From Syntrophales bacterium (GTDB taxonomy: Bacteria; Desulfobacterota; Syntrophia; Syntrophales; UBA6807), in assembly GCA_040767195.1 (NCBI GenBank), contig JAXGPA010000003.1:224001-288000 (forward strand): a stretch of DNA of 64,000 bases, written 5' to 3'. A model generated the notes under the pieces. That model worked only from the letters and a program-made list of their open reading frames with translations, made no database searches and had not been told where the DNA came from. This document shows, piece by piece, positions 26,948-30,803 of this stretch (positions are counted from its first letter, which is position 1; the number at the start of each line of letters is the position of its first letter). A program made the position numbers and the translations under genes.

Positions 26948-27832
26948 ATGATATTTTTCCAACTCATGACTGACCGGCTGCCGGATATCTTGACTATGGG
27001 GAAAAAGCCTGAAGACAGGTTCATCGGCACCAACAACCCGCGGCTTCATTATCTGGACTGGGGAAGCGACAAGGCCCGTACCATGGTTCTCCTTCACGGT
27101 ATCGGGGACACGGCTCATGTCTGGGATTTCTTCTCGCGGGAGGCGTCGGATCGCCTGAGAATTATCGCCCTGGACCAGAGAGGCCACGGTTTGAGCGATG
27201 GGGTCGTGCCGCCGGCGTACCGCTGCGATGATTATGTCGCCGACCTGGACAGGCTCGTCGAAAGCCTCCGGTTGACCGGGGTCATTCTCATGGGACACTC
27301 CATGGGGGCCCTGCACGCCACACGCTACGCCTCCCTGCGACCCGACAGGGTGTCCGGCCTTATTCACTGCGACATCGAGCCCCGCCCGCCCGAGTGGAAC
27401 AGGAAGTATCTCCTCAATCTCTATGAAAAACTGCCGGCCCATTACGAATCGATCGATGAATATGTCAGCGAAGCCCGTCAGAACAGCCCGTACGCAAACG
27501 AACACACGCTCTACCGGATCGCCTCCTCTTCCCTGACACTGGGGAACGACGGCAGGTACCGTATTCAGTTCGACCGGGAAGTCCTCCCCCACTTCGATAC
27601 CTATGATTTGCGGCCCTGCCTCGGTAACATCCGGTGTCCTTCCCTTGTCATCCGGGGTGAAAAGAGCCGGGTCATGGACAAAAAGGCCGCCGTGGAAATG
27701 AGCACCGCCATCCCCCAGGGCCGGTTCAGAGAAATACCGGAGGCCGCCCATCCGGTTCACACCGATAACCCCGTTGAATTTAACCGGGCGGTGTTCGAGT
27801 TCCTGGACGAATTTCCCGTAAGTGTCAAATAA
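26948..27832 (+). CDS. alpha/beta fold hydrolase
   Basis: LLHG, DQRGHG, GHSMG nucleophile elbow, C-terminal His (AAHPVH); start uncertain. Confidence 0.9.
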   Translation: MIFFQLMTDRLPDILTMGKKPEDRFIGTNNPRLHYLDWGSDKARTMVLLHGIGDTAHVWDFFSREASDRLRIIALDQRGHGLSDGVVPPAYRCDDYVADLDRLVESLRLTGVILMGHSMGALHATRYASLRPDRVSGLIHCDIEPRPPEWNRKYLLNLYEKLPAHYESIDEYVSEARQNSPYANEHTLYRIASSSLTLGNDGRYRIQFDREVLPHFDTYDLRPCLGNIRCPSLVIRGEKSRVMDKKAAVEMSTAIPQGRFREIPEAAHPVHTDNPVEFNRAVFEFLDEFPVSVK

Positions 27833-27998
27833 AGCAATCCCTTGGGCCGTTTCCGGAAGCACGCTCACCGGCCCTGGCATGGCTCGGCGGCGACCACGGG
27901 AATGGCATATCCCCCCGCCGCTGACTCTCTCCCGGGGCTTGCCTTTCGAACCACGTCGGTATATTCTCGACACCGCGTAAAACCAGGCAGGCCAGACC

Positions 27999-28580
27999 AT
28001 GAAGACTATCGTTGACCTTATTCACCGGATTGTAACAGGGAAACAGCATGCCCGGATGTTTTTTACGCCGGTCTTCGCCGCGTTTTTTCTCGTCCTTGTC
28101 GCACTTCCGGTATGGCTTGCCCTCAAAGTCGACGCGTATTTCGGTCTTTTCCTCCCCCTTCACCATCCCTGGGATTACGTCGTTTCCCTGCCCCTGCTCG
28201 GGGGTGGCTCCCTTCTCTGGCTGTGGTCGGTGCTCCATTTCGCGAAAGCGAAAGGAACCCCCGTCCCGGTCAGCCCCCCGCCGGGACTCGTCGACACGGG
28301 CCCTTACCGGTACGCCAGAAACCCGATGCTGTCGGGGGTGTTTCTCATCCTATTCGGGATCGCTTTTCTCACAGGGTCTCCGTCCCTTCTGTTTGTTTTC
28401 ACGCCGGCGTTTATGGGCTGCAGCATCCTGGAATTCAAGCTCATCGAGGAACCGGAACTGGAGAAGCGTCTCGGTGAAACGTACCTGGATTACAAGAAAA
28501 GAACGCCCCTTCTCATTCCGAAATTCTTCCGTCGACTGACAAACCGCGCCTTGAAGACGAAAAAATCCGGTGGTGATTGA
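27999..28580 (+). CDS. isoprenylcysteine carboxylmethyltransferase (ICMT/PEMT) family membrane protein
   Basis: GTPVP, LVDTGPYRYARNPM, EEPELEKRLGETYLDYKKRTP. Confidence 0.88.
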   Translation: MKTIVDLIHRIVTGKQHARMFFTPVFAAFFLVLVALPVWLALKVDAYFGLFLPLHHPWDYVVSLPLLGGGSLLWLWSVLHFAKAKGTPVPVSPPPGLVDTGPYRYARNPMLSGVFLILFGIAFLTGSPSLLFVFTPAFMGCSILEFKLIEEPELEKRLGETYLDYKKRTPLLIPKFFRRLTNRALKTKKSGGD

Positions 28581-28699
28581 GAAGAAAAACAGGATCGCGA
28601 AAGTAGAATCAGGACGAGATTCCGGGCTGAAAGAGACTCTCCGGGTGATAGGGGTATCCGTCTTTGAGTAAAACCGGCCTGCTTCCGGTCTGCACCCCT

Positions 28700-29710
28700 T
28701 CATTTCAGGGCCGCCTCGACCTTTCCGGCGACATCCGCGGGTACCCACCCGGTCCAGAGTTCTTTTTTATTTTTCAGGAACCACAGGGCGCCGTCTTCAG
28801 GCATGCCCCTGGTATCCTGCATGTAGGCGAGAATCTCGTTGTTCAGGTCCGTCGTGGTTTCGTATTTCTTCAAGAATTCGATCACCTCGGGCGCTTTCCC
28901 GGGGAGTTTCGCGTTCACGAAAATATGCACCTGGACGGGCTGAAAGGCACAGGCCTTCGTCGTGTTCCAGATCTCTTTGTCGAAGGGGGGTTCCTCGAGG
29001 GCCGTCATGTCGAGCTTTCCCAGAATCCATGAAGGCGCCCAGTAGTAACCGACCCAGGGCTTTCCCCGCTTGACGGCTGCCGTCATCGAACCGGCAAGGG
29101 CGGCGTCCGATCCCGGGATAAAATCCGTGAAATATTTATCCAGGCCGTAGGCCTTAAGCTTCTGGGAATTGATTGCGGTAACACCCCAGCCCGGGATGGA
29201 GTTGTAGAAGCGGCCCTTCGCCGGTTCTTCCGGATCCTTGAAGACTTCCCAGTATTTCGGAAGGTCGTAAACCGACTTGAGACCGGGTGCCATGGGCTTG
29301 ATGCCCCGTTTTTTGTCACCCTTGATGACAAACGTAGGCACCAGCCAGCCCTGCCAGTTGTCCCGGTAGTTGGGACCCAGGTCGATGATGGTGCCTTCCT
29401 TGAGCCCCTTGTCAAAGAGTTCCTGGGTGTTCTCCGTCCAGGACTCCATCTCCACGTCCGTGTCACCCCGCTGAAGCGCCGTGAGGAGCGAGACGGTCTC
29501 CCCGGGAACATGCTCCACACCATAACCGTAGCCGTGTTCGATGATGAAGCCGGCAATCCGGTTGTGCACCTGGATGCTGTCCCAGCTTCGGTCATTGAAC
29601 TTGATCGTTGTTTTCGCCGCCGCCGACTGAATTGCCAGGGTTCCTGAAACAAGCAAAACCGCCGCGAACATGATGACAAACCTGAATGATCGAAGTTCAG
29701 ATCCTTTCAT
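28700..29710 (-). CDS. glycine betaine/proline ABC transporter substrate-binding protein (ProX/OpuAC-like)
   Basis: Signal peptide, WDSIQVHN, DVEMESW, FKDPEEPAKGRF, GYYWAPSW; GGAGG RBS. Confidence 0.88.
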   Translation of the reverse strand: MKGSELRSFRFVIMFAAVLLVSGTLAIQSAAAKTTIKFNDRSWDSIQVHNRIAGFIIEHGYGYGVEHVPGETVSLLTALQRGDTDVEMESWTENTQELFDKGLKEGTIIDLGPNYRDNWQGWLVPTFVIKGDKKRGIKPMAPGLKSVYDLPKYWEVFKDPEEPAKGRFYNSIPGWGVTAINSQKLKAYGLDKYFTDFIPGSDAALAGSMTAAVKRGKPWVGYYWAPSWILGKLDMTALEEPPFDKEIWNTTKACAFQPVQVHIFVNAKLPGKAPEVIEFLKKYETTTDLNNEILAYMQDTRGMPEDGALWFLKNKKELWTGWVPADVAGKVEAALK

Positions 29711-30096
29711 GACAACCTCCTTTTTGACTGGAATGAGAATGCCGTGGTTTTCAGCGTGATAAATTGAAACGCCGCTGTCTGAAAAATCTTTCTGTACCGG
29801 TGAGCAGGGAAAAAGCGGTCGCTTTGGAAAAACGGAAAGCCAAGCCGATATTTACCTTTTAGTTAACAGCATTCGGAACCAATTTCTACTTTTTTTTAGC
29901 CGGCTCACGTCGACGAAAAGAGCGGGATGAAGAAGCAGCCATGAAATAGAAGAGGCAAAGCATTCGAAACCTCGGCGCGGTCATTCTTTCCGCCCGATGG
30001 GTGGGAGCATACCCTCAAAAGAATCACCGGAGGCCTGATCAGTGCCTTCGGAGCCGGTATTTCTGCTTCACCGACACCATAACATTTTGATATTTC

Positions 30097-30125
30097 TTGA
30101 CAGGCTGGAAATTTTTTCTTAAAAT
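30097..30125 (+). promoter_or_regulatory. sigma70-type promoter of the two-peptide operon
   Basis: TTGACA (30097-30102), 17-nt spacer, TAAAAT (30120-30125). Confidence 0.8.
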
Positions 30126-30161
30126 TTTCCCCACATTCATTTTTACCGTGTAGGAGGGGCC

Positions 30162-30275
30162 ATGAAGAAAGAGGAACGGAAAGAAAAAAAAGAGGAGAAA
30201 AAAACCTACGAGAAGCCCGCGCTGACGGGCCATCAAAAGCTGACAAGTGTCATAGGTAAATTCTCACCGTCATAA
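30162..30275 (+). CDS. small peptide 1 (37 aa), RiPP-precursor-like with YxxPxL leader motif
   Basis: AGGAGG RBS at 30152-30157; MKKEERKEKKEEKKTYEKPALTGHQKLTSVIGKFSPS; paralogous to the next ORF. Confidence 0.8.
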   Translation: MKKEERKEKKEEKKTYEKPALTGHQKLTSVIGKFSPS

Positions 30276-30312
30276 CCGGAACAGGAAACGTCCTTTACCA
30301 GGGAGGGGGAAA

Positions 30313-30441
30313 ATGAAAAAAGAGACGAAGAAAGGTAACAAAATAAAAAAAGATTACGAGAAGCCCGAACTCACGCGGCACGGGAAGCTGACGGACGTGG
30401 GGTCGTTCATTTCTCCACCGGAGGTTAATCATTTGGAATGA
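30313..30441 (+). CDS. small peptide 2 (42 aa), RiPP-precursor-like with YxxPxLxxxG leader motif
   Basis: GGGAGGGGG RBS at 30301-30309; MKKETKKGNKIKKDYEKPELTRHGKLTDVGSFISPPEVNHLE. Confidence 0.82.
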   Translation: MKKETKKGNKIKKDYEKPELTRHGKLTDVGSFISPPEVNHLE

Positions 30442-30493
30442 TGATCATGATTTGAACAGATTTTCCAGGTGAAATTTCAGTGGAATAGACAGT

Positions 30494-30517
30494 GCCGTCC
30501 TTCGGGGCGGCCTTTTT
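30494..30517 (+). terminator. intrinsic terminator of the peptide operon
   Basis: GCCGTCC-TTCG-GGGCGGC hairpin (UUCG tetraloop) followed by CTTTTT. Confidence 0.85.
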
Positions 30518-30564
30518 ATTTGTCCGGGGGTTGAAAATGGCATTGGAATTTAAAAATGGCAAAG

Positions 30565-30596
30565 AAAAAGGGGTCAGCTTTCTGTCGCTGACCCCC
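30565..30596 (-). terminator. intrinsic terminator after tRNA-Val/tRNA-Asp
   Basis: GGGGTCAGC...GCTGACCCC stem; A-run on + strand gives a U-tail on the minus strand. Confidence 0.8.
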
Positions 30597-30605
30597 TGTA
30601 TTTAC

Positions 30606-30682
<77 letters not shown>

Positions 30683-30727
30683 AAATCTTTTCTATCCATT
30701 CAAGGAATCGAGGGATTCCTTTTTCCC

Positions 30728-30803
30728 TGGTAGGCGGAACAGGACTTGAACCTGTGACATCCACGGTGTAAACGTGGCGCTCTCCCAACTGAGCTATCCG
30801 CCC
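30728..30803 (-). tRNA. tRNA-Val (TAC)
   Basis: Reverse complement GGGCGGATAGCTCAGTTGGGAGAGCG-CCACG-TTTACAC-CGTGG...GGTTCAAGTCC...CCTACCA; 76 nt. Confidence 0.97.

Follow-up and report, generated by a model that had tools for sequence, protein, structure and literature searches.

The two short open reading frames ORF1 and ORF2 probably encode two of ten precursors of a lasso-derived RiPP pathway that has no cyclase and would make linear phosphopeptides, with its enzymes supplied in trans from contig C8. Both lie in the window, the 64,000-nucleotide stretch of DNA analysed here, to which all coordinates without a contig or locus name refer. An earlier note on this DNA had claimed a complete expression unit at this place, and each of its elements was indeed found:

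30097..30125, forward strand: sigma70-type promoter-like TTGACA-N17-TAAAAT, 11/12 consensus matches
30152..30157, forward strand: Shine-Dalgarno sequence AGGAGG for ORF1, read from the sequence
30162..30275, forward strand: ORF1, precursor 1, 37 aa, with a Lys/Glu-rich N-terminus
forward strand, ORF1 leader: Y(-17)EKPALTGHQKLTSVI(-2)G, in the putative register of the lasso and Bsf systems
30258-30272, forward strand: ORF1 predicted core KFSPS, with Ser3
30301..30306, forward strand: Shine-Dalgarno sequence GGGAGG for ORF2, read from the sequence
30313..30441, forward strand: ORF2, precursor 2, 42 aa
forward strand, ORF2 leader: Y(-17)EKPELTRHGKLTDVG(-2)S, in the same putative register
30406-30438, forward strand: ORF2 predicted core FISPPEVNHLE, with Ser3
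30494..30519, forward strand: intrinsic terminator, with a TTCG loop on a stem of 7 pairs (30494-30511) and a T tail
30606..30803, reverse strand: tRNA-Asp and tRNA-Val, convergent; context outside the unit

The promoter by itself is weak evidence, since shuffled sequences yielded 0.9 ± 0.8 promoter-like sites per 1.7 kb versus two in the actual sequence. The unit stood alone in the window, as had been claimed: upstream of it is an OpuAC substrate-binding gene, and tRNA-Asp, tRNA-Val and lon follow downstream. Between the two-peptide unit and the convergent tRNA operon, at 30568-30597, there is another strong hairpin, which resembles a terminator on either strand. The ungapped alignment of the two peptides over YEKPxLTxHxKLTxV and their synonymous codon differences (ctg/ctc, cat/cac, aca/acg) were confirmed, and the selection at protein level that had been read from them extended to the whole family: its leaders are under purifying selection (pS 0.72 and pN 0.28 over 95 distinct leader DNAs). 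A Pfam search of ORF1 and ORF2 gave nothing above cut-off. The lasso-leader model NF033521 of NCBIfam (lasso_leader_L3), a check proposed earlier, recognised ORF2 narrowly (19.5 bits, cut-off 19) and failed for ORF1, which scored below.

A six-frame profile search of the genome (2.39 Mb, 98.8% complete) gave ten paralogues at three loci, the tenth at E 1e-11 and the next match at E 1.3. Two were in the window, one on C9 and seven on C10, in six units altogether. Their leaders had a mean identity of 61% over 17 residues, and the residues beyond one of 10%. The resemblance exceeds chance: the genome contained ten occurrences of a family motif, and five block-shuffled versions contained 0, 0, 1, 0 and 0. 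A TTGACA or TTGACT promoter-like site preceded all six precursor units and a TTCG-loop hairpin like that of the window unit terminated four of the six; no regulator site conserved beyond the promoter emerged upstream of them. The seven C10 precursors (C10:104195-109524, L012) were arranged in four small promoter-RBS-terminator units. Three of these units stood in tandem directly before the 3' end of a tRNA-Pro, and the window unit stands likewise before tRNA-Asp. A protein search for the family gave 114 matches among 8000 candidates scored, and a metagenome pattern scan gave 55 loci; an earlier contig scan with peptide alignment had confirmed none of 64 candidate stretches. A subgroup of more remotely related precursors, P0095-P0114, has a leader that reads MKKEEKKEYQKPELxEHENLxEVTK; it too obeyed the hydroxyl rule described below.

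The genome contained exactly one PqqD/RRE match (1/12 candidates scored), one Transglut_core3 protein (the B2 protease) and one NTP_transf_5 protein, the genes for all three lying together in a single cluster on C8:

C8 228645-232688, reverse strand: enzyme cluster
C8 232410-232688, reverse strand: RRE, PqqD/RRE match
C8 231962-232417, reverse strand: B2 protease, Transglut_core3
C8 230785-231798, reverse strand: radical SAM-SPASM protein
C8 229727-230788, reverse strand: HprK-like kinase
C8 228645-229730, reverse strand: NTP_transf_5 nucleotidyltransferase

The scan of the whole genome that had been recommended for RRE/PqqD, B2, radical SAM-SPASM, HprK-like kinase and nucleotidyltransferase genes found all of them here. 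The cluster itself held no precursor and no lasso cyclase; it faced two further genes, one for a DUF362 protein and one for a radical SAM protein that binds B12. Maturation in trans, as the earlier note had proposed, is supported by this arrangement, in which the single RRE, B2 and NTP_transf_5 genes lie together without a precursor of their own.

The active sites of these enzymes were intact. The B2 triad Cys86-His120-Asp135 was invariant in 5/5 aligned sequences. The kinase retained His170, Lys191, Asp207 and Asp208, and His-Lys-Asp-Asp is the motif of lasso kinases (PMC9266682). Asp128 and Asp130 of the nucleotidyltransferase were invariant in 33 sequences. Among solved structures the C8 RRE came closest to TbiB1, which binds lasso leaders (E 1e-7), followed by 9x90 and 9x8z, the PbaB1 and LppB complexes (PMC13381572). 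For the nucleotidyltransferase the PDB held no sequence relative; its model (pLDDT 86) gave weak fold matches to MenT1 (E 3e-4), LnuA and ANT(2''), and an ANT(2'')-like fold was likewise reported for PsmN (PMC6993621). Against the NCBIfam models HPr-rel-A (TIGR04352) and SynChlorMet (TIGR04248-04251) the kinase scored 80.6 (cut-off 200), the RRE 35.9 (cut-off 100) and the radical SAM protein 103 (cut-off 400), all of them below cut-off.

Peptides and enzymes were linked in relatives. Among the 13 clusters examined, in which loci with identical genes counted once and the L108, L109, G009 and G054 cassettes were left out, ten had RRE, B2, kinase and nucleotidyltransferase, the other three being interrupted by contig ends. 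Nine of the 13 contained precursors, one to eight each, so that the proposed search for homologues found peptides conserving the leader inside the equivalent cluster. In 301 genomes of the order the peptide occurred in ten, the kinase in ten and both in nine; these are not nine independent events, since the genomes are related and seven of the ten come from one family. The same-genus genome G001 had a syntenic cluster with a precursor in place of the DUF362 and B12 enzymes, G173 had the layout of the window's genome with three precursors mid-cluster, and G611 shared its SPASM enzyme (62%) and had eight precursors. Precursors and kinase were on different contigs in G613, G616, G581 and G667 too. 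The cluster also occurred in records named Syntrophaceae, Smithella and Deltaproteobacteria, and a phylum sample of 401 genomes gave three strong and three weak single peptide matches (weak: G315, G397, G408). Inspection of G591 showed no leader motif; G649 had the kinase and one precursor, which the profile had not detected. In a kinase tree the Smithella-type clade was strongly supported; the rows of the type of G000, the window's genome, which have long branches, were not separated, and the tree is not read as showing ancestry. It is very improbable that ORF1 and ORF2 are ordinary small basic proteins with no relation to the C8 cluster. Their low-complexity Lys/Glu-rich N-terminus and the score of ORF1 below the leader HMM cut-off would suit such proteins, but the linkage in 9/13 clusters and the co-occurrence in 9/10 genomes speak against them.

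The residues behind the leader provided the second line of evidence. Core boundaries were set by the register of lasso peptides and Bsf, with Tyr(-17) and Thr/Ile(-2) (PMC10368454); the leaders were chosen by motif and the cores were unconstrained. Core length ranged from 3 to 32 aa, with a median of 10. None of the 191 distinct cores lacked Ser, Thr and Tyr, where about 27 such cores were expected from a shuffle of residues among 190 cores with the shared LGC tail removed (mean 27, minimum 14 in 1000 shuffles). A shift of the boundary by one residue still gave no hydroxyl-free core, a shift by two gave six versus 37, and removal of near-duplicates left 0/58 versus 7.5 expected. The control classes G, P, D/E, K/R, N/Q and aliphatic were at chance after redundancy reduction. 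The first hydroxyl fell at positions 1-7 in all of 175 cores, and in 144/191 Ser, Thr or Tyr occupied position 3 or 4. The rule also held for the cores of loci that were added afterwards (22/22, eight of them from G611 and mostly already in L089). Selection acts on one core hydroxyl as well as on the leaders. Both window cores have Ser3, the position phosphorylated by BsfK and LppK.

Some of these data count against a phosphopeptide. Tyr was the sole hydroxyl in 8/171 cores, including GPVYNGFEELE of the window's genome, although BsfK and LppK reject Tyr, and the hydroxyl position varied from 1 to 7, whereas BsfK is strict for position 3. Since the characterised kinases do not accept Tyr, the eight Tyr-only cores would be easier to understand if the nucleotidyltransferase acted on the hydroxyl itself and so O-nucleotidylated Ser, Thr or Tyr, with the kinase acting second or on another substrate; the fold of the nucleotidyltransferase, nearest to enzymes that place NMP on a hydroxyl (ANT(2''), LnuA), points the same way. 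We nevertheless regard this as unlikely. For pseudomycoidin, PsmN-dependent hexoses were reported on the phosphorylated form only (PMC6993621), the kinase was present in 13/13 clusters, though it was the query for most of them, and in G611 no nucleotidyltransferase followed the kinase on the contig examined, whose upstream part is missing.

Lasso peptides were considered and rejected as the product, because the macrolactam cyclase is missing and the cores are too short or lack a ring acceptor. The [Y/W]xxPxL leader of lasso precursors was present, as were, in trans on C8, an RRE (B1) and a B2 protease with its catalytic triad. Thr(-2), typical of lasso leaders, was replaced by Ile in ORF1 and by Gly in ORF2; Ile or Val at this position is a known exception (PMC10368454). 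Over the family residue -2 was Thr in 68/175 and Val in 62, and the Gly of ORF2 means that B2 may cleave this peptide poorly or elsewhere. No cyclase resembling asparagine synthetase was found in any fetched cluster. Precursors of lasso peptides cyclised in trans, by one of the two asparagine-synthetase-like proteins of the genome, would agree with the lasso-type leader, RRE and B2, and the protein on C6 does match the cyclase model NF033535 with 186 bits. We consider this hardly credible, however. With 186 and 115 bits the two proteins fell short of the cut-off, which is 525, and they scored higher as asparagine synthases; one of their genes sits in a glycosyltransferase cluster, the other in a methyltransferase cluster. 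None of the 11 cluster-bearing genomes passed the NF033535 cut-off, which no control genome passed either, and in five of the 11 (one 100% and one 98% complete) a cyclase match at E 1e-10 was missing. The 100% complete cyclase-free genome holds six precursors. The ORF1 core has five residues, the ORF2 core has Val-Asn-His at positions 7-9 and no Asp/Glu there, and lasso-competent cores (Asp/Glu at 7-9 and a tail) made up 13/191. Three of the 114 protein matches (P0066, P0084, P0085) carry the NCBI name 'lasso RiPP family leader peptide-containing protein'; our data suggest that calling these peptides 'lasso' misleads and that a 'lasso leader' annotation in such anaerobes is a misnomer.

The C6 locus (C6:240295-257068) is rich in glycosyltransferases and also contains two radical SAM-SPASM genes. 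Its asparagine-synthetase-like protein is without the usual N-terminal Cys expected of asparagine synthetases. The locus probably serves surface glycan synthesis.

Two known systems came closest. The LPPs of Bacillota are made by an RRE, a kinase resembling HprK, an NTP transferase, an exporter resembling MsbA, and a signal peptidase (Popov et al. 2026, PMC13381572). LppK polyphosphorylates core Ser3 and leaves S3T and S3Y unmodified; LppN had no activity in a heterologous host, and the final product and function of LPPs are described as unknown (PMC13381572). As in our case, LPP clusters have no macrolactam cyclase and have a discrete RRE, HprK-like kinase and NTP transferase, and the leader is of the YxxP type with a variable C-terminus behind it; core position 3, the phosphoacceptor of LPPs, is Ser in both window cores by the B2 register. 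The differences were also clear. LPPs are cut after Thr(-1) by an archaeal-type signal peptidase, whereas a transglutaminase-like B2 is present here, and a tblastn search of the cluster loci with an S24/S26-type query found nothing. In contrast to the MsbA-like exporter of LPPs, no exporter was recognised in the cluster ORF lists (by reading; 3/13 clusters end at a contig edge). The LPP leader YxxPxVLxHQxIxFETxxS with its invariant Ser differs from YxKPxLxxxx[KND]LxD[VI]xx, and LPP clusters of Bacillota have one to three precursors, compared with up to ten, often distant from the enzymes, in Syntrophales-type anaerobes. Cores of 3-32 aa with Ser, Thr or Tyr at positions 1-7 and optional radical SAM enzymes, formyltransferase and glutaminyl cyclase further set our system apart from LPPs. 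The strings 'Desulf', 'Syntroph', 'radical' and 'transglutaminase' do not occur in the main text of PMC13381572.

The other system is Bsf of Bradymonas sediminis, with bsfA, K, B1, B2, N, C and D (Duan et al. 2023, PMC10368454). BsfK phosphorylates Ser3 or Thr3, not Tyr3, of the precursor with the help of the RRE and is strict for position 3, and the leader has Tyr(-17) and Ile(-2) (PMC10368454). The B1 RRE, B2, kinase, nucleotidyltransferase, Tyr(-17), Ile/Val(-2) and Ser3 are all shared; ORF1 fits fully, and ORF2 deviates by its Gly(-2). Bsf, however, has the cyclase C, the exporter D and a lasso-competent core, and neither C nor D was found here. With PadeK/PsmK and PsmN, which tailor the lasso peptides paeninodin and pseudomycoidin, our enzymes share the His-Lys-Asp-Asp kinase and the nucleotidyltransferase with a DxD pair and ANT(2'')-like fold; in pseudomycoidin, PsmN-dependent hexoses on phospho-Ser required the DxD pair (Zyubko et al. 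2019, PMC6993621). Those enzymes modify the C-terminal Ser of a lasso, whereas only 14/171 cores end in Ser here and there is no ring. NF033521 names some family members, and the kinase, RRE and radical SAM protein weakly resemble the HPr-rel-A/SynChlorMet models, but lie far below all of their cut-offs. The pathway works like that of LPPs and like Bsf without ring closure, and belongs to neither. Among the literature matches listed, which covered few subscription papers, there was no B2-type cyclase-less system and there were no peptides of these organisms. Of the earlier proposal that ORF1 and ORF2 are RRE-dependent RiPP precursors of an undescribed type, the first part is supported, and the second holds in part: the type is not wholly undescribed, because a 2026 paper reported linear phosphorylated RiPPs whose synthesis involves an RRE, a kinase resembling HprK and a nucleotidyltransferase (PMC13381572).

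For the linear phosphopeptide pathway that we favor, the following order of events may be proposed. The stand-alone RRE would bind the YEKPxL leader, as its family and its likeness to TbiB1 suggest, and present the peptide to the HprK-like kinase, which would (poly)phosphorylate a hydroxyl early in the core; in the window peptides this would be Ser3. This phosphorylation is proposed on the basis of the hydroxyl rule and the precedent of BsfK and LppK. The PsmN-like NTP_transf_5 protein might then cap the phosphate with a nucleotide or lead to a sugar, a weaker proposal, against which the inactivity of LppN in its heterologous host counts (PMC13381572). B2 would cut 17 residues after Tyr to give linear KF(pS)PS and FI(pS)PPEVNHLE. 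Subsets of the products may optionally be decorated by the B12 radical SAM and DUF362 enzymes, the radical SAM-SPASM enzyme or a formyltransferase, in relatives also by glutaminyl cyclase or a GNAT enzyme.

Several of these additional enzymes bear on the N-terminus of the core. Glutaminyl cyclase genes were present in three clusters, two of which have a Gln-first core (L048 QQPSKIMG, L113 QLSKGSG), and formyltransferases in four, lying among the precursors in L048, L050 and L113. In the window's genome a formyltransferase-domain gene (C9:65874-66971, L013:7875-8972) follows directly 3' of the lone C9 precursor. Both the glutaminyl cyclases with Gln-first cores and the placement of the formyltransferases suit a free core N-terminus. 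Counted against the phosphopeptide pathway as proposed was a Gln-first core in the window's genome, where glutaminyl cyclase had no match. The C9 formyltransferase gene is followed by two genes that were labelled, by reading, as sulfatase-like and as a radical SAM gene resembling anaerobic sulfatase maturases. A 515-aa radical SAM protein is encoded among precursors at L050:11401-12948, and genes for a GNAT acetyltransferase and for a protein with a C39 peptidase domain lie in or beside the cluster at L114:3375-5959.

The radical SAM-SPASM enzyme was rejected as class-defining, because it occurred in 2/11 cluster-bearing genomes and the syntenic position in the nearest relative lacks it. The SPASM query gave positives in one search and none in a companion search, and the other nine SPASM genes of the genome were in unrelated contexts, as judged from the ORFs. 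The two SPASM-bearing genomes were the only ones with seen precursors ending in LGCTR[F/L]. The enzyme probably acts on cores ending in LGCTRF and not on the two of the window, which with n=2 is a lead only. The LGCTRF tail showed synonymous variation in 20 DNA copies, and its DNA persisted in frame behind a premature stop at three loci. Such persistence was noted in several first-of-pair genes (L012:2196-2350; L066, L073, L082), where the stop codon of this tail abuts the RBS of the next gene.

The window locus itself was variable in relatives. The two-gene unit was kept in five related loci (L051, L061, L063, L064, L071). The core alleles seen at this locus, those of the window included, were KFSPS, KFS and EFSAS at the ORF1 position and FISPP..., SSISTE, SFSPR... 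and SYATG... at the ORF2 position; every allele has Ser or Thr in positions 1-4. L051 was identical to the window in all 100-base bins of 29500-30399 and differed at 46 positions in 30400-30599, beginning at the end of the ORF2 leader, where its core is SSISTE; L061 and L063 had further cores at the same locus. The core at ORF2 appears to have been replaced by recombination, a proposal that concerns one pair and makes no claim of targeting. L051 is part of a population mosaic, since it differs from the window by 2-11 per 100 bases at 28600-29499. It is quite unlikely that the window copies, within a real RiPP family, are degenerate spare or decoy leaders which the RRE binds and which are not matured. 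The core of ORF1 is merely five residues long, ORF2 has Gly(-2) and a core that, compared with the L051 allele, resembles a one-base frameshift, and the unit adjoins tRNA 3' ends like three C10 units, all of which a decoy would explain. A decoy would not be expected to keep Ser or Thr in core positions 1-4 in all alleles at the locus, an intact promoter, RBS and terminator, and the two-gene unit in five related loci.

RNA-library contigs without mismatch lay over the unit in 4/4 anaerobic-digester metatranscriptome runs of one study, spanning 30212-30420, 30211-30397, 30164-30402 and 30207-30397 (unstranded, with no level or start). They are consistent with transcription of the unit, DNA carry-over being possible. 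The regions 29670-30043 and 27800-28360 were uncovered in all four runs; as these are contigs, such gaps carry no weight. None of the findings that the earlier note had named as fatal to its proposal was made.

As to the purpose of the products, fast-diversifying, strain-specific signal or conflict molecules, with a constant tag and the peptide as variable label, are a possibility to which we give slightly less than even weight, and which is weakened by the fact that no exporter was seen in the cluster ORF lists. A wider version, which we regard as rather doubtful, is a combinatorial RiPP 'barcode' of syntrophic anaerobes, in which one RRE-kinase-nucleotidyltransferase-B2 machine of relaxed regiospecificity tags a genome-wide library of short peptides with strain-swapped cores, with plug-in enzymes added. 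If it were true, Ser, Thr and Tyr would all carry a phosphate-nucleotide or phosphate-sugar tag, strains would exchange cores by recombination at the leader-core junction, plug-ins (B12 radical SAM/DUF362, SPASM for LGCTRF tails, formyltransferase, glutaminyl cyclase) would multiply the products, and each strain would have its own signals or weapons within dense communities of methanogenic habitats.

Two unannotated micro-ORFs have led here to a pathway that can be tested and for which a modification site is predicted. The findings suggest that, outside Bacillota, a linear phosphopeptide pathway is run by RRE and B2 machinery of the lasso type. The about 190 natural cores amount to a substrate rule, one Ser, Thr or Tyr in positions 1-7 in nearly any context, and offer a substrate panel for the unsolved PsmN/BsfN/LppN reaction; the kinase is a candidate leader-guided tool for peptide engineering. 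Acceptance of Tyr, if true, would be a novelty compared with BsfK and LppK. Mining based on clusters misses such systems, because all ten precursors and the enzymes are on separate contigs here.

Other cassettes with related enzymes were also observed. L108 and L109, more distant kinase loci, contain RRE, kinase and nucleotidyltransferase genes with glycosyltransferases, and together with L111 and L112 they represent a second kind of cassette: an RRE, a kinase or kinase-GT2 fusion, NTP_transf_5 and glycosyltransferases, with neither B2 nor precursor seen in the four loci. L040 (G054:C170) and L045 (G009:C11) are cassettes of RRE, radical SAM-SPASM and kinase-like genes with another leader type; L040 encodes a precursor of 59 aa that contains Cys and whose YEKP leader is of a different type, and L045 has an S24/S26 peptidase. 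The second-type cassettes occur in cluster-bearing genomes, and those of L111 and L112 lie within a few kb of a B2-type cluster.
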